A model generated the notes under the pieces. That model was not told where the DNA came from. It saw only the letters and a program-made list of their open reading frames with translations, and did no database searches. This document shows, one piece after another, positions 1,255-45,601 of a DNA stretch of 64,000 nt; position 1 is the stretch's first letter; each line of letters begins with the position of its first letter. The stretch lies in the NCBI RefSeq assembly GCF_055900595.2, contig NZ_CM148325.1. One strand, given 5' to 3'. The translations under genes were made by a program, and so were the position numbers.

Positions 1255-1932
1255 CTACAACAAGGCAAGGTTTATGTACTTTCCGGTTGCCGCATTTTCT
1301 GGATTTTCTGCAAGCCAGGGAATTTCGCCCAGCAGCGGCGCGGGAATCATGCGGGTGAGCGTGGTCATATATTCAGCGTGACGTTTTCCAGGAGGCGTGA
1401 CATCATTCGCCACCCAACCCGCCAGAGTCAGTCCGGCGTGTTGTATTGCCTGTGCCGTCAACATCGCGTGATTAATACAGCCGAGTTTCACACCAACTAC
1501 CAGTATCACCGGCAGTTGTTCCTGTGTTACCCAATCCGCAAAAGTGAAAGTGTCAGAAAGCGGCGTAAACCAGCCGCCAGCACCTTCCACTAACACCCAG
1601 TCAGCCTGTTGTTCAAGCGCGCGTAATCCGGCGCTCATTACCAATGATTCTATCGGCCTGCCCTCTTGCGCGCTGATGATGTGCGGTGAAGTGGGTTCTG
1701 CGAAGGTGTAAGGATTTACCGTTGCGTAATCCAGCTGCAGGCTGCCGTTGTGCTGTAACGCCAGCGCGTCACTATTACGTAAGCCGTCCGGGGTCTTTTC
1801 GCTGCCAGAGGCGACCGGTTTATAACCTGCCGTCCGATAACCTGCTGCCTTCGCGGCTTGTAAAAGTGCACAACTGGCGACAGTTTTCCCCACTTCGGTA
1901 TCCGTTCCGGTGACAAAATAACGTTTACTCAC
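1255..1932 (-). CDS. bioD: Dethiobiotin synthetase
   Basis: ORF reads (ML)[28 protein letters not shown]; P-loop GTDTEVGKT; start probably the GTG two codons inside the track ORF; last gene of the bioBFCD operon. Confidence 0.9.
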
Positions 1933-2680
1933 GAGCAATCACTCCCAAAAAAAGATGATACGTCAGAGGATATCGCCCCTGTTGTTGCGGCCAGGCCAGT
2001 TGCAATCGCTGCAACTGCGAACGCGTTAATATTCGTGGGTAGCGCCCTTCATGAAGATGCGTGGCACCGATGCCTTTCAGCGAACGCATGGCACTGAGCG
2101 CATCAGCAAACCACAGCGTGATGGGCTGAATATGATGTTGATAATGCACGCTGTTCAGCGACTGTTCGATTTCATCTGGCGGTAAAAAGCGATTAGCATG
2201 CGGGCGCTCGTCCACCGCCTGCCACGCCTGATGCAATTCAGGGAGCGATCCCTGCACCAGCGTGGTAAACGCGACCACGCCTCCGGGGCGCACCACGCGA
2301 TACAGCTCGCGAAGTGCCGTGGATAAATTACCGCACCACTGCACCGCGAGATTGCTCCATGCAAGATCGAAGGTTGCAGTCGCTAACGGCAGGGATTCGA
2401 TATCTCCCGCCAGATAATGGTCTGCGGCATCCTTCTGGCGTGCCTGAACAAGCATTGGCGGCGAGAGATCTAACGCTGTCACCTGCGCGTGACGTTCCCG
2501 CCAGTGGCGACTCATCCAGCCTGGTCCACAACCCGCGTCCAGCACGTGGGTGTATTTACGCTGTGGGAGCATTGCCAGTAAGACGTCAGCACTCTGGCGC
2601 TGTAGATCCGCATGTTGCTCATAATGTGCGGCTGCCCGACCAAATGCCGCAGCAATGGCTTGTTTATTAACCGTTGCCAT
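1925..2680 (-). CDS. bioC: Malonyl-ACP O-methyltransferase
   Basis: From internal ATG (2678-2680) reads [27 protein letters not shown]...[11 protein letters not shown] (SAM-binding motif); operon context. Confidence 0.9.
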
Positions 2681-3821
2681 GCAGCACCTCCAGCAGACGG
2701 TCGATATCCTGCATTTCATGCGCGGCGGTTAGCGTTAAGCGCAGTCGCGCAGTACCAGCGGGTACGGTTGGCGGGCGAATCGCCGTGACCCAGCAGCCTT
2801 GCTGGCGCAGTTTTTCTGCCAGTTGTAACGCACGGCTGTTATCACCGACAATCAATGGCTGGATGGCGCTGTATGAATCAGCAAGCGTAAACGGCAAATC
2901 CTGTACTCCGGCACGAAAACGCGTAATGAGTGCCGCCAGTTTTTCGCGCCGTGCATCACCCTCATCACTGCGAATGACCGCCAGCGACGCACGTAATGCC
3001 TGCGCCTGAGCGGGCGGCATACTGGTGCTGTAAATAAGATGGCGGGCAAATTGCAGTAGATAATCCGCCACCGTATCGGAGCAAAGCACCGCTGCCCCGC
3101 TGACGCCAAATCCTTTGCCAAAAGTCACCACCAGAAGTTCCGGTTTCACCTGCTGTTGCCAGCAGCTACCGCGCCCCTGTTCACCGATCACGCCCGTGCC
3201 GTGGGCATCGTCGACCATCAACCAGCCGTTGTGCTGTTGCGTTACCTGCTGGATTTCCGCCAGTGGCGCACTATCGCCGTCCATGCTGAACACGCCTTCT
3301 GTCACCACCAGTTGCTGCCCCGGACAGGGGGAAGCAAGCAGTCGCGCCAGATGAGCGACATCGTTATGGGTAAAACGGCGAAGCTGCGACGGGCTTAAAC
3401 TGGCAGCTTCCAGCAATGAGGCGTGACTCAGCCGATCGGCAACAATACGGTCCTCTTTCGCCGTCATCGCGGTAATGACTGCCTGGTTAGCGGCAAAACC
3501 AGAGATAAACAGCAGTGCCCGCGAATAGCCCAGCCACTCGGCCAGTTCTTCTTCCAGCGCCTGATGCGCCACGCTATAACCGCTGACGTGACCGGAACCG
3601 CCGCTACCGACGCCAAATTGCTCCGCACCCTGCTTCCATGCACGGATGATGTGCGGATGATGACTTAAACCTAAATAATCGTTACTGGAAAAGTTCAGAT
3701 ACTGGCATTCATCCGCCACCAGCCAGCGTCCGGCCCCTTGCGCCACCGGATAACGGCGACGCAGGGCATCGGCAGCACGCCGCGCATCGAGCGCCGCGTT
3801 GATTTTCTCCTGCCAGCTCAT
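2667..3821 (-). CDS. bioF: 8-amino-7-oxononanoate synthase
   Basis: 384 aa ORF, PLP-dependent aminotransferase-like ([12 protein letters not shown]); between bioB and bioC with overlapping stops and starts. Confidence 0.9.
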
Positions 3822-4858
3822 AGTGCTGCCGCGTTGTAATATTCGTCAGTGTCCGGGGTCATCAGCGCCTGTTCAAGACGTTGCTGTTGTTCGTTATCGC
3901 CCGCCAGCACTGCGGTTTGCTGCGGATTTAACCCCAGTTTGCGGAACAGTTGCAGGTCTTTATCTTCTTCCGGATTCGGCGTGGTCAGCAATTTGCAACC
4001 GTAGAAAATCGAGTTTGCGCCAGCCATAAAGCACATCGCCTGAGTCTGTTCGTTCATCTGCTCGCGTCCGGCAGAAAGGCGCACGTAAGAGGTCGGCATC
4101 ATGATCCGCGCGACTGCAATAGTGCGAATAAAATCAAAGGCATCGACATCATCGTTATCTGCCAGTGGAGTGCCTTTCACCTTCACCAGCATGTTGATTG
4201 GTACGCTTTCCGGCGGCGTCGGCAGGTTTGCCAGTTGCAGCAATAATCCAGCGCGATCTTTTACCGTTTCGCCTAAACCTACAATGCCACCTGAACAGAC
4301 TTTGATCCCGGCATCACGCACTTTTTCCAGCGTGTCGAGACGTTCCTGATAAGTGCGTGTGGTGATGATATTGCCGTAAAACTCCGGCGAGGTGTCGAGG
4401 TTGTGGTTGTAGTAATCCAGCCCGGCATTCGCAAGGCGCTGCGCCTGAGATTCACTCAACGTGCCCAGCGTCATACACGCCTCCAGGCCCATCGCTTTTA
4501 CCCCCTGCACCATCTGTTCCAGGTACGGCATGTCGCGTTCGTGGGGATTCTTCCACGCCGCGCCCATACAGAAACGTGTCGATCCCGCCGCTTTCGCTTT
4601 TCGCGCCGACTCCAATACCTGTTCAACTTCCATCAACCGCTCAGCTTCCAGTCCGGTTTTATAACGCGAGCTTTGCGGGCAGTATTTGCAATCTTCCGGA
4701 CAAGCTCCGGTTTTAATTGACAGCAAAGTACTGACCTGCACCTGACGAGGATCGAAATGCTGACGATGCACCTGCTGCGCTTCAAACAGCAGATCCAGCA
4801 ACGGTTTTTCAAATAATTCTGTGACTTGCGACAATGTCCAGCGTGGGCGGTTAGCCAT
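3818..4858 (-). CDS. bioB: Biotin synthase (radical SAM)
   Basis: 346 aa; [11 protein letters not shown] radical-SAM cysteine motif; divergent from bioA across the bio operator. Confidence 0.92.
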
Positions 4859-4900
4859 GGGGCTTCTCCAAAACGTGTTTTTTGTTGTTAATTCGGTGTA

Positions 4901-4940
4901 GACTTGTAAACCTAAATCTTTTCAATTTGGTTTACAAGTC
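4901..4940. promoter_or_regulatory. bio operator (BirA site) in the divergent bioA/bioBFCD promoter region
   Basis: Imperfect 40-bp palindrome GACTTGTAAACCTAAATCTTTTCAATTTGGTTTACAAGTC between the bioB and bioA starts. Confidence 0.8.
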
Positions 4941-4944
4941 GATT

Positions 4945-6234
4945 ATGACAACGGACGATCTTGCCTTTGACCAACGCCATATCTGGCACCCATACACATC
5001 CATGACCTCCCCGCTACCGGTTTATCCGGTGGCGAGCGCCGAAGGTTGCGAGCTGATTTTGTCTGACGGCAGACGCCTGATTGACGGTATGTCGTCCTGG
5101 TGGGCGGCAATCCACGGCTACAACCACCCGCAGCTCAATGCGGCAATGAAGTCGCAAATTGATGCCATGTCGCATGTGATGTTTGGCGGTATCACCCATG
5201 CGCCGGCCATCGAGCTATGCCGCAAACTGGTGGCGATGACGCCGCAACCGCTGGAGTGCGTTTTTCTCGCGGACTCCGGCTCCGTAGCGGTGGAAGTGGC
5301 GATGAAAATGGCGTTGCAGTACTGGCAAGCCAAAGGCGAAGCGCGCCAGCGTTTTCTGACCTTCCGCAATGGTTATCATGGCGATACCTTTGGCGCGATG
5401 TCGGTGTGCGATCCAGACAACTCAATGCACAGCCTGTGGAAAGGCTATCTGCCAGAAAACCTGTTTGCTCCCGCGCCGCAAAGCCGCATGGATGGCGAAT
5501 GGGATGAACGCGATATGGTGGGCTTCGCACGTCTGATGGCGGCGCATCGTCATGAAATCGCGGCGGTGATCATTGAACCGATTGTTCAGGGCGCTGGCGG
5601 AATGCGCATGTACCATCCGGAATGGTTAAAACGAATCCGCAAAATGTGCGTTCGTGAAGGTATCTTGCTGATTGCCGACGAGATAGCCACCGGATTTGGT
5701 CGTACCGGCAAACTGTTTGCCTGCGAACATGCAGAAATTGCGCCGGACATTTTATGCCTCGGTAAAGCCTTAACCGGCGGTACGATGACCCTTTCCGCCA
5801 CGCTCACTACGCGCGAAGTGGCTGAAACTATCAGCAACGGCGAAGCCGGATGCTTTATGCACGGGCCAACCTTTATGGGCAATCCGCTGGCCTGCGCGGC
5901 AGCAAACGCCAGCCTGGCCATTATCGAATCTGGCGACTGGCAGCAGCAGGTAGCGACTATTGAAGCACAACTGCGCGAGCAACTGGCTCCTGCCCGTGAC
6001 GCCGAAATGGTTGCCGATGTGCGCGTGCTGGGAGCGATTGGCGTGGTCGAAACCACTCGTCCGGTGAATATGGCTGCGCTGCAAAAATTCTTTGTCGAAC
6101 AGGGTGTCTGGATCCGACCTTTTGGCAAGCTGATTTACCTGATGCCACCCTATATCATTCACCCGCAACAGTTGCAGCGCCTGACCGCAGCGGTTAATTG
6201 CGCGGTGCAGGATGAAACATTTTTTTGCCAATAA
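4945..6234 (+). CDS. bioA: Adenosylmethionine-8-amino-7-oxononanoate aminotransferase
   Basis: From ATG 4945 reads [25 protein letters not shown], 429 aa; the track ORF start at 4882 lies inside the operator and is unlikely; class III aminotransferase motifs. Confidence 0.9.
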
Positions 6235-6292
6235 CGAGCAGTCAGCGTGAGGTTTTCTGGCTACACTTTCTGCAAACAAGAAAGGAGGGTTC

Positions 6293-6769
6293 ATGAAACT
6301 CATTAGTAATGATCTGCGCGATGGCGATAAGCTGCCGCATCGCCATGTCTTTAACGGCATGGGTTACGATGGCGATAATATTTCGCCGCATCTGGCATGG
6401 GATGATGTTCCTGCGGGAACCAAAAGTTTTGTCGTCACCTGCTACGACCCGGATGCGCCAACTGGCTCTGGCTGGTGGCACTGGGTAGTTGTTAACTTAC
6501 CCGCTGATACCCGCGTATTACCGCAAGGGTTTGGCTCTGGTCTGGTAGCAATGCCAGACGGCGTTTTGCAGACGCGAACTGACTTTGGTAAAACCGGGTA
6601 CGATGGCGCAGCGCCGCCGAAGGGCGAAACTCATCGCTACATTTTTACCGTTCACGCGCTGGATGTAGAACGTATTGATGTCGATGAAGGTGCCAGTGGC
6701 GCGATGGTCGGGTTTAACGTCCATTTCCACTCTCTGGCAAGCGCCTCGATTACTGCGATGTTTAGTTAA
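6293..6769 (+). CDS. ybhB: PEBP/YbhB-family protein
   Basis: 158 aa, MKLISNDLRDGDKLPHRHVF...; located between bioA and the lambda attachment site as in K-12. Confidence 0.85.
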   Translation: MKLISNDLRDGDKLPHRHVFNGMGYDGDNISPHLAWDDVPAGTKSFVVTCYDPDAPTGSGWWHWVVVNLPADTRVLPQGFGSGLVAMPDGVLQTRTDFGKTGYDGAAPPKGETHRYIFTVHALDVERIDVDEGASGAMVGFNVHFHSLASASITAMFS

Positions 6770-6859: not shown

Positions 6860-6874
6860 TTAGTATAAAAAAGC
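6860..6874. repeat. Prophage-host junction core (bio-proximal), lambda att core sequence
   Basis: TTAGTATAAAAAAGC (reverse complement of GCTTTTTTATACTAA), with CGCTCAAG host arm to the left and lambda P-arm-like sequence to the right; identical 15-mer at 45587-45601. Confidence 0.85.
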
Positions 6875-7018
6875 TGAACGTGAAACATTAAAAGCCATTA
6901 ATATCAATGCATTACAATATTTTTAGTCTAAAAAATAGACTACATAATGCTACAAAACACAACATACCCAGTCACTATGAATCAACCACTTAGATGGTAT
7001 TAGTGACCTGTAACAGAG

Positions 7019-7062
7019 CATTAGCGCAAGGTGACTTTTTGTCTTCTTGCGCTAATTTTTTG
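7019..7062 (+). terminator. Hairpin plus T-run at the inner edge of the P arm
   Basis: ATTAGCGCAAG...CTTGCGCTAAT stem followed by TTTTTTG; oriented to stop transcription entering from the ybhB side. Confidence 0.45.
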
Positions 7063-7265
7063 TCAAACACATTACGTCGTTTGCTGAATTTACAACCATG
7101 CTCAGTATCTCGATAAGCGCAGAGAAATGATGCAGTGGTGGGCGGATTGGCTTGATGAAAAGGTGTAGCAACCAACATTGCTATATCTCAGATAGCACAA
7201 AGCCTTGCAATCCAGTGCAAAGCTTTGTGTGTCTCAGTTTTGTCTCATCGGTAATTATGTGTTCG

Positions 7266-7565
7266 CTACGATGCAAGAATCCATACCAATAAGCATCCGA
7301 TAATTGGGAAAGAAAAATCCAACAAACTTCCCACATCCCACACGCGTGGATCAAAACCTCCCCACCACGGCATGTTGACACGTTTCCCTTTCCCAAACTT
7401 TTCTATCCAGCGATATTCTGCCTGGGTGTGTTCACGCGCAATGAAGAACGTACAACCGGCTATCGCACCGTAAGCCCAGTTTCCGGTAAAAATACCAACC
7501 AGTACCTGAGCCGCAAAAGCGCAAAGCGAGTGAAGAAATGGAGTGACATCAATGCTCTTAATCAT
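7266..7565 (-). CDS. Small predicted inner-membrane protein, function unknown (accessory gene)
   Basis: 99 aa with hydrophobic segments ([27 protein letters not shown]); start overlaps the tailspike stop (ATGA); last gene before the att site. Confidence 0.5.
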
Positions 7566-9619
7566 GAAACTTCCCCATTGGTTGAAAATATGGCTCCTCC
7601 AACTCCAAGTGTATTTCGTGTTGTGCTCAACCTAAGAGGGCTGGAGTCAGAATTAGAATATCCTGTAGCAGAAATAAAAGATCCTCCACTAATAGTCAAC
7701 TGCGGAACATCGGCTATATCTGAATAAGTTCTGTCAGCAACAGTATTATTTATAGCCACATGTGATCCAAAAAAACTTCTTATTGTTTGGTTTTTAACTT
7801 TACTTCCTTCAATGGTTATCCTACTACCACAGTCAGCAATAAATCCTGAATCTGCATCCAGCGTTGCATTCATAAAAGAAGCTTCAGATCTCTCTACATC
7901 AATCCATCTAATATCTTTTGTGGGATTTGCACCAAATACATGACAAATATTAGAGTTAAACCTTACACCATCTTGGAGGTGCATTAATTTTTTTATATCT
8001 GTACCCCATAGCCTTGGAAAATTAACAGATGCTCCTGCATGGCAATCAAATCCCAGCTCAACCCCTGAGATATCTACAGCCTTTCCGGAAATAACAGCAC
8101 CAGTGTCTGCATTAACGGCTGTTCCACAATTGCGCATATCATTACCAGCAACATCAACACAACCCGCACCATCAATACGCACACCAAGTGCACATCCATA
8201 AAAACCTTTTTCAATATTTGGTTCAAGGACTTTACCACTTGTTTCTGCATCACTTTCTTCAACGTCATGTCGTCTTGCATCAACATATGCTGTATGAATG
8301 CACGTTAATCCACGATATGAGCAATGTATAGTTTTATGGTCGCGTATATTAACATTTGAACCATCTCTTACATTCCATCCTATATAACAATAGCTTGCAC
8401 TTGACCCCTGAAAATCTGCTTTAACATTATAAATACAATTAACTGACGCAACCGTACTCTCTGTGCACCGTTCAAACTTACTTACAGGCATTGATGCCTT
8501 GACATTATTTACCAGTTGCAGGGAAGAGTATCTGCTATAAGAAAAATCACATACGTAATACCCTTCTGGCATATATGCAGCAACACTTTCCTCATCAGGA
8601 GCACATCCGGTATGATATGCACTAATTTTTGCACCAAAACTACCATGAATTCCAACGTAGAACTTTCGAGCACCTGAATACGGATAGAAATTAAGTTCAG
8701 CTTTTTGAGTTACAATAAATGCACAAACATCGCTATCATCTCTATTTTCTTCAATCTGAATAGCAAATACAGGACTTTTTGCTGCATCGCAAATGTAAAA
8801 TAAATATTTGTATTCGTAATACGTCCTAACAGTTTTAGTAAACAAACTGGTATCAGAGAAAACCACTGAGTCTTCTGATATTATTTTAATCCATGATAAG
8901 TCACATCCTGCTGAAATTTCTATTTGCTCATTGAGCACAAAACCGGAAAGAATTTTAATTATGCAAAAATCAATGCCATTTTTCCATAGTGGACGCAGTG
9001 CAACAGCTGAGTTTAGAGCATCACTAATAGATTTAAAATTACCATATTCCCCAACTGTTATTGTGAATGCATACCTGGAATTAAATACTGCGGCACTCTC
9101 TCCAGAGTTAATAGCTGCAGATATCATGTCATAATTTGATATAAAATCATTTGGCGTGATTATTTCTGCGTTTTTATTGTGCTGTGTTCTAAGTTTTGAA
9201 TTTACATGAACACTTTTAACTGCAATACGGGAGTCGTCAACAAGTATTTCATTACCCTCTGTTGCTAACTCTTGTCTTAACTGATCCGGGTCATACTTCA
9301 GCACATTCGGAAAATAGAACTGCTGCACACCGTACGCATCATAAACAGCCATAGAATGGCCCTGTACAGTAACGAATTTGGCAATCTGTCCGTTATATAC
9401 CGGATATCCAGCAGCGTTAATGATGATTGGTTGCGAAACAGGAACGTGAGATCCATCTTCGTTCTCTACATAAACCTGAATCTGGTTTTCAGGATTTACA
9501 GGGGCAGTATCAATTTTACCGATATAAATTTTGCCATTGGCTACGGCTTTAAAAGAACGCGCCATAGTGAAGAGTTGCGAAGGCATACTCACTACAACAT
9601 TGGCTGTAATGTCTGTCAT
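7562..9619 (-). CDS. Tailspike protein with P22 gp9-like N-terminal head-binding domain and a different receptor-binding domain
   Basis: N-terminus [38 protein letters not shown]...VLKYDPDQ matches the P22 tailspike head-binding domain as I recall it; remaining ~570 aa unrelated to P22 endorhamnosidase. Confidence 0.85.
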
Positions 9620-9765: not shown

Positions 9766-10134
9766 ATGGGAAGAGATGACCCGCAATTTAATCTGCGGCT
9801 ACCTTACGAATTAAAGGAAAAACTAAAACAGCGAGCCAAATCCAATGGCCGCTCTCTTAATTCAGAATTAGTTCAGATAGTGACTGATGCTGTATCAAAG
9901 CCATCCAAAATTTCAGGCTATCGAGACGATGCGGAACGCATCGCTGATGAGCAGTCAGAGCTTGTTAAGAAGATGGTGTTTGATACGCTGAAGGATTTGT
10001 ACAAAAACCCACCTGATGGTGGGTTCCATTTATTAGTCTTGCTTTGTGGACGGTATAAGGGATGCATTTGCCTCTTTAGGCTTCAAGGTATACATCCCAC
10101 CATTAAATGGATCTACAGCAAGCCAACCAATTAA
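9766..10134 (+). CDS. mnt: Mnt-like ribbon-helix-helix repressor with ~40 aa C-terminal extension
   Basis: MGRDDPQFNLRLPYELKEKLKQRAKSNGRSLNSELVQIV...DAERIADEQSELVKKMVFDTLKDLYK closely follows P22 Mnt; ORF then continues antisense to the neighbouring lipoprotein gene. Confidence 0.75.
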   Translation: MGRDDPQFNLRLPYELKEKLKQRAKSNGRSLNSELVQIVTDAVSKPSKISGYRDDAERIADEQSELVKKMVFDTLKDLYKNPPDGGFHLLVLLCGRYKGCICLFRLQGIHPTIKWIYSKPTN

Positions 10135-10452
10135 CCCACCAAACACAAGGTTTCCACCAATATACCAACCATTAGCATTGGCTTTGATTGGCAGGGTAAC
10201 TGGTTCGTACCCATCCTTCTCCATAGTGATCTGGTAGCTCTTTTTGCCAAAATAACTACCATCTGACTTGGCAAGAGTTACTCCTTGCGGGGTCTTACCT
10301 TGCGCAACAATCACGCCTGATTCGTCTTTTACCTTAAAGCTCGCACCGGAAGGATTGCTGTTCACTTGCACAAGCTGTGTTTCGTCACCAACAATAGTTG
10401 CGCACCCAGATAACATGATAACGCCAGCAACGACGCCAATAATCCTCTTCAT
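10033..10452 (-). CDS. Lipoprotein with PEGA-like domain, function unknown
   Basis: MKRIIGVVAGVIMLSGC lipobox signal; VNSNPSGASFKVKDESGVIVAQGKTPQGVTL resembles the PEGA motif; convergent with mnt. Confidence 0.6.
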   Translation of the reverse strand: MKRIIGVVAGVIMLSGCATIVGDETQLVQVNSNPSGASFKVKDESGVIVAQGKTPQGVTLAKSDGSYFGKKSYQITMEKDGYEPVTLPIKANANGWYIGGNLVFGGLIGWLAVDPFNGGMYTLKPKEANASLIPSTKQD

Positions 10453-10569
10453 ATCAATTTCCATATTTAAAAAACCGGAAACATCCTAATGACAAACCAT
10501 TCAAATGTGAAGTAGGCAAAAGATGTTTACTTTTTTCATGGTATCCTGCTCAAAACTAAGGAGGTTGGC

Positions 10570-10959
10570 GTGAAGCAATTTCTTACTGCTATGTTCTTAT
10601 TCATATCTTTTGGGGCTACAGCAGAGTGCTGGGTCGTTGGAGATATGCGCGGAATAAGCTATTCAGAACGAAATAATTTCCATCCGGAAGAAGATGGTTT
10701 TAGTGGAACATTCATCATTAAGACAAACGGTGAAGATGCCAGCATCACATATTCTGGGACAGATGCGGGCGGCATGGCTTACAAAGCATTGTCTAAAAAC
10801 TCCATCATAGGAATCGGCGCGAATGGCGAAACTCAACGCGTTATCGACTCATGGGTAATACATCCTACTGGAACAGTTTTAATGTCAAAAACCATTTCCG
10901 GTTATGGAAATATGGATTCAACCAAAGCTTTTGTTGGAAAAGTAAAAAGAAAATGTTAG
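10570..10959 (+). CDS. Small secreted protein, family A/B paralogue 1
   Basis: GTG start after AAGGAGG; signal peptide MKQFLTAMFLFISFGATA then ECWVVGD...STKAFVGKVKRKC; shares motifs with the ORF at 36750-37154. Confidence 0.6.
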   Translation: MKQFLTAMFLFISFGATAECWVVGDMRGISYSERNNFHPEEDGFSGTFIIKTNGEDASITYSGTDAGGMAYKALSKNSIIGIGANGETQRVIDSWVIHPTGTVLMSKTISGYGNMDSTKAFVGKVKRKC

Positions 10960-26057: not shown

Positions 26058-26495
26058 TTATTTCAGGCATTGCGTCCTGATGTATTCCTGCAGGTAGTTA
26101 ACCTGCGCGGTTATCTTGTCGATTCCACTTCGGAGACGGTAATAATTGAGTTCAGCATCTGCTGTAAGTCTTGGGCTTTCTCCATCGCCCATGCCGCTGG
26201 CTCCGGTCTTTGACTTTGCACAGGAGGCGGCGACTTGCAGCCGCTTACGCCCAGCAGAAACATCATCACGGAGACTTTCGATAGTCGCGTTAGCATCAGC
26301 AAGCTCCTTTGTATATCTGGCATCGAGTTCTGCTACATCACGTTGACGCTTCTGCATATCAGCGATGATGGATGTGGCTTTATCGCGCTGGTCTTTGTAG
26401 GCGATGGCGTTATCACGGTAATGATTAACAGCCCATGACAGGCAGACGATGATGCAGATAACCAGAGCGGAGATAATCGCGGTGACTCTGCTCAT
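26058..26495 (-). CDS. Rz: Spanin inner-membrane subunit Rz
   Basis: [31 protein letters not shown] matches lambda Rz N-terminus; follows endolysin R. Confidence 0.85.
26111..26323 (-). CDS. Rz1: Spanin outer-membrane lipoprotein Rz1, embedded in Rz in another frame
   Basis: Internal ORF with lipobox LLGVSGC and proline-rich stretch [13 protein letters not shown]; true start probably the internal MM. Confidence 0.6.
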
Positions 26496-26968
26496 ACCTC
26501 AATCTCTCTGACCGTTCCGCCCTCTTCTTTGAATTTTGCAATCAGGCTGTCAGCCTTATGCTCGAACTGACCATAACCAGCCCCCGGCAGTGAAGCCCAG
26601 ATATTGCTGCAACGGTCGATAGCCTGACGGATATCACCGCGATCAATCATCGGTAAAGCGCCACGCTCTTTAATCTGCTGCAATGCCACAGCGTCCTGGC
26701 TTTTGGGAGAGAAGTCTTTCAGGCCAAGCTGCTTACGATAGGCATCCCACCAACGGGAAAGAAGCTGGTAACGTCCGGCTGCTGTTGATTTGAGTTTGGG
26801 GTTTAGCGTGACAAGTTTGCGAGGGTGATCGGAGTAATCAGTAAATAGCTCTCCGCCAACAATGACGTCATAACCATGATTTCTGGTTTTCTGACGTCCG
26901 TTATCTGTCCCCTCTGACCACGCCAGCATATCGAGGAACGCCTTACGTTGATTATTGATTTCCACCAT
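26492..26968 (-). CDS. R: Endolysin (lambda R lytic transglycosylase)
   Basis: 158 aa, [49 protein letters not shown], essentially lambda R. Confidence 0.92.
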
Positions 26969-27275
26969 CTTCTACTCCGGCTTTTTTAGCAGCGAAGCGT
27001 TTGATAAGCGAACCAATCGAGTCAGTACCGATGTAGCCGATGAACACGCTCGTTATATAAGCGAGATTGCTACTTAGTCCGGCGAAGTCGAGAAGGTCAC
27101 GAATGAACCAGGCGATAATGGCGCACATCGTTGCGTCGATTACTGTTTTTGTAAACGCACCGCCATTATATCTGCCGCGAAGGTACGCCATTGCAAACGC
27201 AAGGATTGCCCCGATGCCTTGTTCCTTTGCCGCGAGAATGGCGGCTAACAGGTCATGTTTTTCTGGCATCTTCAT
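26952..27275 (-). CDS. S: Holin (lambda S, dual-start S107/S105 type)
   Basis: [41 protein letters not shown], 107 aa. Confidence 0.92.
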
Positions 27276-44246: not shown

Positions 44247-44465
44247 ATGTACTTGACACTTCAGGAGTGGAACGCACGCCAGCGACGCCCAAGAAGCCTT
44301 GAAACAGTTCGTCGATGGGTACGCGAGTGCAGGATATTCCCTCCTCCGGTTAAGGATGGAAGAGAGTATCTGTTCCACGAATCAGCGGTAAAGGTTGACT
44401 TAAATCGACCAGTAACAGGTAGCCTTTTGAAGAGGATCAGAAATGGGAAGAAGGCGAAGTCATGA
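44247..44465 (+). CDS. xis: Excisionase Xis
   Basis: 72 aa MYLTLQEWNARQRRPRSLETVRRWVRECRIFPPPVKDGREYLFHESAVKVDLNRP, lambda Xis. Confidence 0.92.
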   Translation: MYLTLQEWNARQRRPRSLETVRRWVRECRIFPPPVKDGREYLFHESAVKVDLNRPVTGSLLKRIRNGKKAKS

Positions 44466-45513
44466 GCGCCGGGATTTACCCCCTAACCTTTATATAAGAA
44501 ACAATGGATATTACTGCTACAGGGACCCAAGGACGGGTAAAGAGTTTGGATTAGGCAGAGACAGGCGAATCGCAATCACTGAAGCCATACAGGCCAACAT
44601 TGAGTTATTTTCAGGACACAAACACAAGCCTCTGACAGCGAGAATCAACAGTGATAATTCCGTTACGTTACATTCATGGCTTGATCGCTACGAAAAAATC
44701 CTGGCCAGCAGAGGAATCAAGCAGAAGACACTCATAAATTACATGAGCAAAATTAAAGCAATAAGGAGGGGTCTGCCTGATGCTCCACTTGAAGACATCA
44801 CCACAAAAGAAATTGCGGCAATGCTCAATGGATACATAGACGAGGGCAAGGCGGCGTCAGCCAAGTTAATCAGATCAACACTGAGCGATGGATTCCGAGA
44901 GGCAATAGCTGAAGGCCATATAACAACAAACCCTGTCGCTGCCACTCGCGCAGCAAAATCAGAGGTAAGGAGATCAAGACTTACGGCTGACGAATACCTG
45001 AAAATTTATCAAGCAGCAGAATCATCACCATGTTGGCTCAGACTTGCAATGGAACTGGCTGTTGTTACCGGGCAACGAGTTGGTGATTTATGCGAAATGA
45101 AGTGGTCTGATATCGTAGATGGATATCTTTATGTCGAGCAAAGCAAAACAGGCGTAAAAATTGCCATCCCAACAGCATTGCATGTTGATGCTCTCGGAAT
45201 ATCAATGAAGGAAACACTTGATAAATGCAAAGAGATTCTTGGCGGAGAAACCATAATTGCATCTACTCGTCGCGAACCGCTTTCATCCGGCACAGTATCA
45301 AGGTATTTTATGCGCGCACGAAAAGCATCAGGTCTTTCCTTCGAAGGGGATCCGCCTACCTTTCACGAGTTGCGCAGTTTGTCTGCAAGACTCTATGAGA
45401 AGCAGATAAGCGATAAGTTTGCTCAACATCTTCTCGGGCATAAGTCGGACACCATGGCATCACAGTATCGTGATGACAGAGGCAGGGAGTGGGACAAAAT
45501 TGAAATCAAATAA
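44443..45513 (+). CDS. int: Tyrosine integrase Int
   Basis: 356 aa MGRRRSHERRDLPPNLYIRNNGYYCYRDPRTGKEFGLGRDRRIAITEAIQAN...; overlaps xis; catalytic R/HxxR/Y region (HELRSL...Y); lambda Int. Confidence 0.95.
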   Translation: MGRRRSHERRDLPPNLYIRNNGYYCYRDPRTGKEFGLGRDRRIAITEAIQANIELFSGHKHKPLTARINSDNSVTLHSWLDRYEKILASRGIKQKTLINYMSKIKAIRRGLPDAPLEDITTKEIAAMLNGYIDEGKAASAKLIRSTLSDGFREAIAEGHITTNPVAATRAAKSEVRRSRLTADEYLKIYQAAESSPCWLRLAMELAVVTGQRVGDLCEMKWSDIVDGYLYVEQSKTGVKIAIPTALHVDALGISMKETLDKCKEILGGETIIASTRREPLSSGTVSRYFMRARKASGLSFEGDPPTFHELRSLSARLYEKQISDKFAQHLLGHKSDTMASQYRDDRGREWDKIEIK

Positions 45514-45586: not shown

Positions 45587-45601
45587 TTAGTATAAAAAAG
45601 C
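45587..45601. repeat. Prophage-host junction core (gal-proximal), int-adjacent
   Basis: TTAGTATAAAAAAGC preceded by lambda P'-arm-like sequence (TGATAGTGACCTGTTCGTTGCAACAAATTGATAAGCAATGCTTTTTTATAATGCCAACT) and followed by host AGGC. Confidence 0.85.

Follow-up and report, generated by a model that had tools for sequence, protein, structure and literature searches.

A small inner-membrane protein family encoded behind phage receptor-binding genes, with homologues in kps-type capsule loci of Alphaproteobacteria

In phage P22 the genes gtrC, gtrB and gtrA lie in the space after gene 9, on the opposite strand (convergent) and with their own signals, while Sf6 carries oac and CUS-3 carries neoO adjoining the tailspike gene. 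These serotype-conversion genes of P22-like phages (gtrABC, oac, neoO) act on glycans that are recognised by the phage's own tailspike. Phages epsilon15 and D3 (the latter of Pseudomonas, with Iap) encode tiny hydrophobic, non-catalytic inhibitors of O-antigen polymerase near the tailspike or conversion region; their target is Wzy-dependent O-antigen polymerisation, and they are made in lysogens. Llp of T5 and Cor of phi80, N15 and HK022 are small lipoproteins with a lipobox, linked to a receptor-binding gene, that act on FhuA. Here we describe ORF99, a 99-codon open reading frame (ORF) for a small inner-membrane protein of the phrog_1443/‘Ybl63’ family, which lies directly behind the tailspike gene of a P22-like prophage in a 64,000-nucleotide stretch of contig NZ_CM148325.1 (assembly GCF_055900595.2), referred to throughout as the window. 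The family is a large and unstudied one of phage accessory envelope proteins linked to host-recognition genes, and there is a modest chance that it represents something new. Its homologues are also operonic parts of kps-type capsule loci, dependent on an ATP-binding cassette (ABC) transporter and carrying genes for 3-deoxy-D-manno-oct-2-ulosonic acid (Kdo) biosynthesis, in many Alphaproteobacteria.

ORF99 resembles P22 gtrABC in its map position, between the tailspike gene and attP, and in its association with the membrane. Whereas gtrABC are independently transcribed and convergent, ORF99 is co-directional with a late gene and coupled to it. Conversion genes encode recognisable, serotype-specific enzymes or flippases (GtrA, GtrB, acyltransferases); ORF99, in contrast, is a lone gene and is independent of the type of receptor-binding domain. 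A GtrA-like flippase (PF04138, about 120 amino acids, four transmembrane segments) was rejected, as there was no Pfam match and the model of ORF99 has three helices. An O-acetyltransferase of the Oac/NeoO type (an acyltransferase of 200–350 amino acids) was likewise rejected for a protein of 99 amino acids without a Pfam domain. Like SieA, HK97 gp15 and T4 Imm, ORF99 is a small phage-encoded protein of the cytoplasmic membrane, and the gp15 gene of HK97 is also found in a tail cluster. SieA has three predicted transmembrane segments, and the P22 SieA paper makes no mention of a gene downstream of the tailspike (PMC10883804). Unlike SieA and HK97 gp15, which have their own promoters and are prophage-expressed according to annotation, ORF99 has no promoter predicted by a simple consensus scan, and its family has non-phage homologues in capsule loci. 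The genes for Tai/Ati tail-assembly interference (PMC11364771) lie upstream of the packaging module, target tail assembly and are unrelated to the ORF99 locus.

With Llp and Cor, ORF99 shares small size, an envelope location and linkage to a receptor-binding gene, but it is predicted to be polytopic and not a lipoprotein. Inspection of the sequence revealed neither a signal peptide nor a lipobox (residues 12–15, HSLC, miss the [LVI][ASTVI][GAS]C consensus), and a receptor-blocking lipoprotein of the Cor/Llp type was therefore rejected. By analogy, ORF99 would behave most like the small hydrophobic inhibitors of epsilon15 and D3, which offer the closest parallel to the mode of action proposed below. 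Those inhibitors differ from the ORF99 family, which is linked to ABC-transporter/Kdo-type loci and to late expression.

The features at the ORF99 locus are as follows.

7266..7565, minus strand: ORF99, small inner-membrane protein of the phrog_1443/‘Ybl63’ family, 99 codons from ATG
7562..7565, minus strand: ATGA overlap of the tailspike stop codon with the ORF99 start codon, read from the sequence
7570..7576, minus strand: Shine-Dalgarno-like GGGGAAG within the 3' end of the tailspike coding sequence, 4 nt upstream of the ORF99 start (function inferred)
7562..9619, minus strand: tailspike of 685 amino acids, P22-type head-binding domain followed by an AT-rich receptor-binding domain (PDB and phrog_5662 matches)

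The ORF of 99 codons is present at the coordinates of the original prediction, but on the minus strand, and comparative sequence evidence identifies it as a real gene. Residues 5–98 match positions 1–94 of the 97 in the phrog_1443 hidden Markov model (E = 9.1e-54), and a search of 1.84 billion representative proteins yielded 315 clusters at 50% identity, almost all of them stand-alone proteins of 90–110 amino acids. When ORF99 was compared with 60 distinct homologous DNAs, differences at the three codon positions numbered 1008, 425 and 1906, with the third position dominant; the codon changes were 1227 synonymous versus 1188 non-synonymous. Invariant residues, described below, point the same way. 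A protein identical to ORF99 is encoded by phage JEP4.

The ATG of ORF99 occupies 7565–7563 and the TGA of the tailspike gene occupies 7564–7562, so that the overlap claimed originally can be read directly, although the start codon itself is less certain. For the identical sequence, RefSeq/PGAP places the start at an ATT at 7553, giving 95 amino acids; one such record is WP_024166873.1 of E. coli EC332 (L003 4567–4854), whose DNA is identical to 7266–7553 of the window. Most homologues begin at the equivalent of ORF99 residue 5 (MD-I/L-TP), and the PGAP choice of ATT was likely driven by homology. The ATG within the 4-nt overlap is the more likely true start but should not be considered certain. 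Note that both candidate starts are within 8 nt of the tailspike stop codon, and tight operonic linkage therefore holds for either. A crude scan of the window predicted no promoter or intrinsic terminator around ORF99 on its own strand, and a simple consensus scan found no sigma-70-like site on the minus strand near 7565–7900. ORF99 is the final gene of the late operon and is coupled to the tailspike gene in front of it. Its GC content at third codon positions (GC3) is 0.47 versus 0.22 in the adjacent receptor-binding domain, and its overall GC content of 0.47 equals the prophage average (0.47); the outlier in composition is the tailspike and not ORF99.

The upstream gene does encode a tailspike, as had been supposed. 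Residues 1 to ~120–160 match the head-binding domains of the Sf6 and P22 tailspikes in a sequence search of the PDB, and the protein also matches phrog_5662. The receptor-binding part (7562–9259), which is very AT-rich as its GC3 indicates, has no sequence relative in the PDB. It is 89% identical to the corresponding domain of a fibre in phage L018 and near-identical from residue ~260. The L018 fibre has a different N-terminal adaptor, yet an ATGA-coupled small ORF is also present behind it; the receptor-binding domain and the small ORF can thus travel jointly. The pair of proteins is also a clear case of receptor-binding-domain shuffling between virion types.

Database searches placed ORF99 in its own family and nowhere else. 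The top Foldseek matches were proteins that UniProt names ‘Ybl63’ (TM-score 0.95); against AFDB50 only family members and marginal matches to domains of unknown function were returned, and against BFVD nothing. The structure searches as a whole gave no more than generic helical bundles or other uncharacterised ‘Ybl63’ members. Pfam gave no match to ORF99 even at E <= 10, which bears out the earlier claim that it is not a glycosyl- or acetyltransferase, and none for 93 members at E <= 0.001; one of the 93 had a weak match to Phage_holin_8 (E = 3.6e-3). No relative of ORF99 was found in NCBIfam or PADLOC, and a profile search of the PDB gave chance matches to NatA only (E ~0.8). The enzyme Lgt (prolipoprotein diacylglyceryl transferase), suggested by the name of one Foldseek match, was rejected after hhalign comparison with E. 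coli Lgt (0.3%). Literature searches of the searchable library found no publication on ybl63, phrog_1443 or accessions of the family proteins, and nothing on kpsS and kpsF together with Sphingomonas. By DNA similarity, 1917 of the 5426 complete E. coli genomes carry the family, and the median among these carriers is 2 copies.

Viral neighbourhoods were counted in the 80 closest IMG/VR loci. In all 80, a large ORF in the same orientation precedes the family member. The distance from the upstream stop codon to the member is -4 nt (ATGA) in 9 loci, 0–15 nt in 38, 16–50 nt in 25 and more than 50 nt in 8; it is thus no more than 50 nt in 72 of 80. The ten upstream ORFs that were sampled all match PHROGs of tail fibres or tailspikes, among them P22-type spikes with five or more different receptor-binding domains, lambdoid short fibres that end in a chaperone-like C-terminal part, and fibres with other adaptors. 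A gene tied to one receptor-binding domain was ruled out, since the same ORF stands behind at least seven tail-fibre/tailspike PHROGs. A further scan of viral contigs, seeded with distant members, was dominated by E. coli prophages and gave one new context, and metagenome contigs of three distant members were mostly too short to inform.

The carriers cover all three tail types (podo-, sipho- and myovirus). In phage 21 and many lambda-like phages, the side fibre is followed by a 92-amino-acid ORF and then by the member. E. coli BL21 and an SSU5-like plasmid prophage have the member behind a tail fibre gene; in a P2-like prophage of Aeromonas it overlaps the preceding fibre gene by 4 nt, it follows GpJ in a Comamonas prophage and a tailspike gene in Desulfovibrio, and it lies beside tail genes in Oceanimonas and Oceanisphaera. 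One siphovirus tail-tip module has the order tape measure, Dit, tail protein, member (ATGA), tail protein, J-like fibre. The member also borders lysis genes in three distant phage lineages: on metagenome contigs it precedes Phage_holin_3_3, a muramidase and DUF2514; in the Comamonas prophage it precedes a holin-like protein of 125 amino acids with multiple transmembrane segments and then phrog_3108; and in Aeromonas phage 62AhydR11PP it follows phrog_3108 and phrog_1544. In phages, the family is always found as a lone gene behind receptor-binding tail genes or at the junction of the tail and lysis modules. The original prediction had placed ORF99 in a lysogenic-conversion slot. P22 gtrC/B/A do occupy the equivalent space, but the family elsewhere follows varied fibre, tailspike and tail-tip genes, and it is therefore a conserved late-operon gene and not cargo of the P22 slot. 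This comes close to, without reaching, the case that the prediction had set against itself, a conserved virion or lysis accessory protein in related phages.

Several of these loci contain other genes of interest. In phage 21 (L002 6386–9835), a full sitABCD iron/manganese transporter operon lies directly after the member on the opposite strand; sitABCD is true cargo there, and its presence shows that the late operon closes with the small ORF. The copy of E. coli BL21(RP) (L250 4950–5243, WP_000355603.1) is in a decayed prophage, where the order is a gene with a tail-fibre domain, the member and a truncated tail-fibre-assembly gene. The phrog_3108 proteins beside the member in the Comamonas prophage and the Aeromonas podovirus, listed as of ‘unknown function’ (L004 8970–9521, L089 2499–2996), have an SLT-like G-L-Q-E-S motif and are encoded in apparent lysis cassettes. 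They had no Pfam or PDB match; phrog_3108 is probably an unannotated endolysin family.

For cellular loci, one genome per species was scanned with distant members as seeds, which gave 78 loci, 73 of them with an intact member. Most are from Sphingomonadales, and the remainder are from Aureimonas, Devosia, Chelativorans, Desulfovibrio, Halomonas and Oceanimonas. Neighbours of kps type were found within 6 kb at 23 of the 73 loci, 17 of which had two or more; almost all of these are alphaproteobacterial, mainly from Sphingomonadales. In 7 loci the gene directly before the member, in the same orientation, encodes a KpsD/Wza-like exporter, and in 6 it encodes KpsS. Neighbouring ORFs were clustered and the recurrent clusters annotated. 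These comprise the KpsD/Wza-like exporter, KpsS, a KpsC-like Capsule_synth protein, KpsE, KpsM, KdsA, KdsB and KpsF, together with GT2 glycosyltransferases, a UDP-ManNAc dehydrogenase, RmlB and a sulfatase-domain protein that is likely membrane-bound. On metagenome contigs, a KpsF-like gene with SIS and CBS domains precedes an independent member. In Sphingomonadales, Aureimonas and Devosia, the homologues are thus operonic in loci that resemble known kps loci (KpsF, KpsE, KpsD, KpsU/KdsB, KpsC, KpsS, KpsM, KpsT). The classical kps loci of E. coli, Neisseria and Campylobacter are not known to include a small three-helix membrane component.

Some alphaproteobacterial copies are found in prophage tail modules. 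In a rough neighbour-joining tree, the kps-linked members of Aureimonas and Devosia group with a member from a prophage tail module, as sister to the enterobacterial phage clade, and the kps-linked members keep all invariant residues. Taken together, the grouping and the retained residues indicate that the phage and capsule habitats share one family, and sequence conservation suggests that both kinds of member probably have one biochemical activity. The link to surface polysaccharide, which had been drawn originally from the P22-like map position, thus survives in altered form, by way of homologues in kps-type capsule loci of Alphaproteobacteria.

In Sphingomonadales, the neighbour met most often is a PhyH-type (Fe/2-oxoglutarate) dioxygenase gene, which is often convergent or divergent with the member, even without kps genes within 6 kb (loci L196 (3550–4593), L230, L218, L217, L190, L209, L179, L215, L247 and others). 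The dioxygenase and the member may possibly form a functional pair.

The hydrophobic, membrane-bound character originally predicted for ORF99 is supported by hydropathy and by structure prediction. Kyte-Doolittle peaks cover residues ~7–27 and 78–99, with a weaker one at 30–44, and a polar stretch (45–77) lies between. AlphaFold2, run with the alignment of 93 diverse members, returned a model with a pLDDT (predicted local distance difference test) of 96.8 and a pTM (predicted template-modelling score) of 0.82, in which helices 8–27 and 30–57 form a tight hairpin that is followed by helix 78–98; hydropathy backs helices 1 and 3 strongly and helix 2 weakly. Four residues (R44, E45, E50 and W76) are invariant in the alignment and five (H12, Q48, A49, R62 and P87) are near-invariant, and ORF99 has all nine. 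The conserved motif reads G-R-E-H-x-Q-A-E-Y-R-W-I, with a further conserved stretch after it that opens with R. Residues H12, R44, E45, Q48, E50, R62, W76 and D83 make up a polar cluster, followed by a Trp-rich loop. From the helix registers, H12, R44/E45 and D83 would lie at a like depth from the same membrane face, and the model thus suggests that the cluster is probably at one membrane interface and forms one polar site. Mean counts of K and R are 5.4 in loop 44–77 versus 0.1 in turn 26–31, which favours a topology with the N-terminus inside, loop 44–77 in the cytoplasm and the C-terminus outside. TMHMM as quoted in the phage 21 record gives two transmembrane segments with both termini inside, unlike this arrangement. 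The C-terminus (...CLLVWILAS) has no charged residue, and the protein finishes inside the third hydrophobic helix.

We tentatively favour the possibility that ORF99 is an inner-membrane factor acting on lipid-linked surface-glycan assembly. The same protein stands behind many unrelated receptor-binding domains, so its target should be generic and not serotype-specific; it would also work alone in hosts from Delta- to Gammaproteobacteria and must then act on something generic. Because capsule loci keep the member beside KpsS and KpsD, lipid-anchored glycan handling at the inner membrane is the most economical guess. ORF99 would work from the cytoplasmic side of the inner membrane, and its target would be a host component shared among Proteobacteria; this could be the lipid acceptor or its Kdo-glycolipid primer, or else the enzymes or transporter by which they are handled. 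In the phage, the activity would serve to alter or stop the display of surface polysaccharide late in infection, and perhaps also weakly in lysogens. The gain may be that fewer progeny are trapped on the dying cell and its debris by the glycan that their own spike binds; alternatively, it may be reduced adsorption of competitor phages. A bolder version, which we consider distinctly unlikely, is that the family is an overlooked small membrane component of ABC-transporter/Kdo-linker capsule assembly that has been captured by phages of all tail types as a generic, serotype-independent late switch of glycan display, wired to receptor-binding genes. Such a factor might, for example, prepare or present the lipid acceptor for KpsS/KpsC, or process the lipid terminus.

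Several observations weigh against a role in glycan assembly. The single commonest neighbour in the genome scan is not a kps gene but the PhyH-type dioxygenase (19 loci), only about one third of the alphaproteobacterial loci are kps-linked, and other alphaproteobacterial copies adjoin housekeeping genes (DNA ligases, an RNA polymerase subunit). The neighbours of ORF99 itself are the tailspike gene and the att site, and kps genes are absent from the window. Functional group 2 capsules are not known from many of the E. coli strains that host such prophages, e.g. B strains. In Sphingomonadales, the C-terminal tails of the members are rich in K and R, contrary to the favoured topology. The coupling of ORF99 to a late structural gene and the lack of a predicted promoter speak against classical lysogenic conversion, and in the three distant phages where the member borders lysis genes, a lysis role would explain the position just as well.

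The remaining features of the prophage and its surroundings, some of which bear on the alternatives, are as follows.

1255–6769: bioD-C-F-B, bioA and ybhB, to the left of the prophage
6860–6874, minus strand: lambda-type att core on the bio/ybhB side, at the prophage end adjoining ORF99; exact match to GCTTTTTTATACTAA (reverse complement)
7020..7065, plus strand: sib/tI-type hairpin and T-run, int retroregulation site (alignment to the HK97 region annotated sib)
26058..27275, minus strand: the prophage's own full lysis cassette (holin, endolysin, Rz-like spanin; phrog_126, phrog_90, phrog_13)
44443..45513, plus strand: integrase ORF, lambda-type (phrog_7244 and phrog_1 matches)
45587–45601, minus strand: second att core, at the prophage end near the integrase gene; exact match to GCTTTTTTATACTAA

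The two copies of the att core and the lambda-type integrase define a prophage of ~38.7 kb at att-lambda, and with an exact core at both ends it looks excisable. Its nearest relatives are Lederbergvirus (P22-like) phages, e.g. JEP4 and HZ41. A P22-like prophage here has an integrase and att site of the lambda/HK97/434 type and is inserted between ybhB/bio and the right-hand gene. Its late genes are on the minus strand, and the final two are those for the 685-amino-acid tailspike and then ORF99. The att core and ORF99 are separated by 391 bp that contain a lambda/HK97-type P arm and the sib hairpin. An ORF of 49–62 amino acids in this interval is doubtful and is annotated as a fragment in some records; ORF99 is thus the last credible gene before the core, in agreement with the earlier note. 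As only this arm and sib follow ORF99, with neither gtrB nor gtrC, a gtrABC cluster was rejected. Positions 6860–7065 align near base-for-base with the att core, P arm and sib hairpin of HK97, the record of phage 434 has a terminator annotated at the place equivalent to the hairpin, and in the prophage state the hairpin is split from int. The HK97 homology ends just past the T-run of sib; the following ~200 bp (7066–7265) are common to phage 434 and others and include a second long hairpin at ~7196–7232.

A separate region, 9766–10959, lies between an ejection-protein gene and the tailspike gene and is the equivalent of the immI/sieA region. It has an Arc/Mnt-like gene, which RefSeq calls truncated, a predicted lipoprotein of 143 amino acids (10033–10464, minus strand, phrog_6823) and a protein of 129 amino acids with a probable signal peptide (10570–10959, plus strand, phrog_2651). 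PADLOC gave no match for either of the latter two. Given their place in the P22 sieA slot, the phrog_6823 lipoprotein and the phrog_2651 protein are candidate exclusion or conversion genes.

Among the alternatives, superinfection exclusion would have ORF99 block genome delivery from within the cytoplasmic membrane, as P22 SieA, HK97 gp15 and T4 Imm do, and the proximity to tail genes would then reflect the common linkage of exclusion genes with receptor-binding and tail modules. ORF99 is indeed small and integral to the membrane, and the family lies in or after the tail modules of many temperate phages, including a siphovirus tail-tip cluster like that of the HK97 gp15 moron; its high frequency in E. 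coli prophages, with the multiple copies noted above, also fits. However, hhalign probabilities were 0.3% each to SieA and to HK97 gp15, so that homologues of both were rejected, and there is no match to a Pfam Imm or Sie family or to a PADLOC model. A moron in the definition of Hendrix was rejected as well: the crude scan predicted no promoter or terminator in the gene's orientation, and its start codon lies across the stop codon of the tailspike gene. An exclusion gene expressed from a prophage would need the reverse of this arrangement, in which no promoter is predicted and translation is coupled to a late gene. A motif that is near-invariant from Desulfovibrio to E. coli, and in podo-, sipho- and myovirus settings alike, is hard to square with fast-evolving targets such as ejection or tape-measure proteins, and operonic homologues in the capsule loci of free-living Alphaproteobacteria are unexpected. 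We therefore regard exclusion as rather unlikely.

Late expression would suit a lysis accessory, that is, a membrane protein that tunes holin triggering or envelope breakdown, for instance by an antiholin-like or membrane-weakening action. The late-operon position, the small size and two or three hydrophobic helices are in keeping with such a role, as is the direct adjacency to lysis genes in the three unrelated lineages, in two of which the neighbour is phrog_3108 with its SLT-like ‘QES’ motif (read from the sequence). Where a lysis module follows a tail module, however, adjacency to both is expected by position alone, and in this prophage a complete holin-endolysin-spanin cassette is 18.5 kb away, as it is by gene order in lambdoid and other P22-like carriers. 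A class I holin was rejected because there is no match to a Pfam holin family (the weak Phage_holin_8 match of one member aside), the C-terminus lacks the charged tail of typical holins and the prophage has its own holin (phrog_126); nor are the conserved polar motif and the capsule-locus homologues holin-like. We consider a lysis role improbable. A helper in the maturation or attachment of the fibre or tailspike, e.g. a membrane platform for the distal receptor-binding protein, would explain the constant place directly after the distal receptor-binding gene, and translational coupling would fix the stoichiometry. The position between the fibre gene and the tail-fibre-assembly gene in the BL21 remnant, and before tail-region genes in the Aeromonas P2-like prophage, could be read in the same way. 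Against this, no integral membrane protein is known as a fibre chaperone in these phage groups. The tailspikes of P22, Sf6 and HK620 type need no such factor for folding and attachment, and the gene is absent from P22 itself; the same protein stands behind structurally unrelated receptor-binding proteins, and chromosomal homologues are found in capsule loci or beside housekeeping genes with no phage genes nearby. Such a helper is very improbable. The probability left over from all of these readings belongs to something not yet imagined.

The family is present in about one third of complete E. coli genomes, often in multiple copies, and in laboratory B strains, and it has no proposed function; phages of Aeromonas, Comamonas, Desulfovibrio and others are further carriers. 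Strict linkage to receptor-binding genes, a near-invariant polar motif and a high-confidence fold make it a tractable candidate, for which the laboratory B strains, with their copy in a decayed prophage, are a convenient natural knockout background. The comparison exposes an inconsistency in RefSeq start codons (ATT versus the overlapping ATG), and it cautions against annotating all genes between tailspike and att as ‘conversion cargo’. The capsule-locus homologues provide testable leads in two directions: how phages may manage the glycan layer that they themselves bind, and whether kps-type systems have accessory membrane factors beyond the classical models. If the version in which phages have captured a capsule-assembly component were true, it would reveal both a novel way in which phages manipulate the host envelope and a gene new to the capsule pathway.

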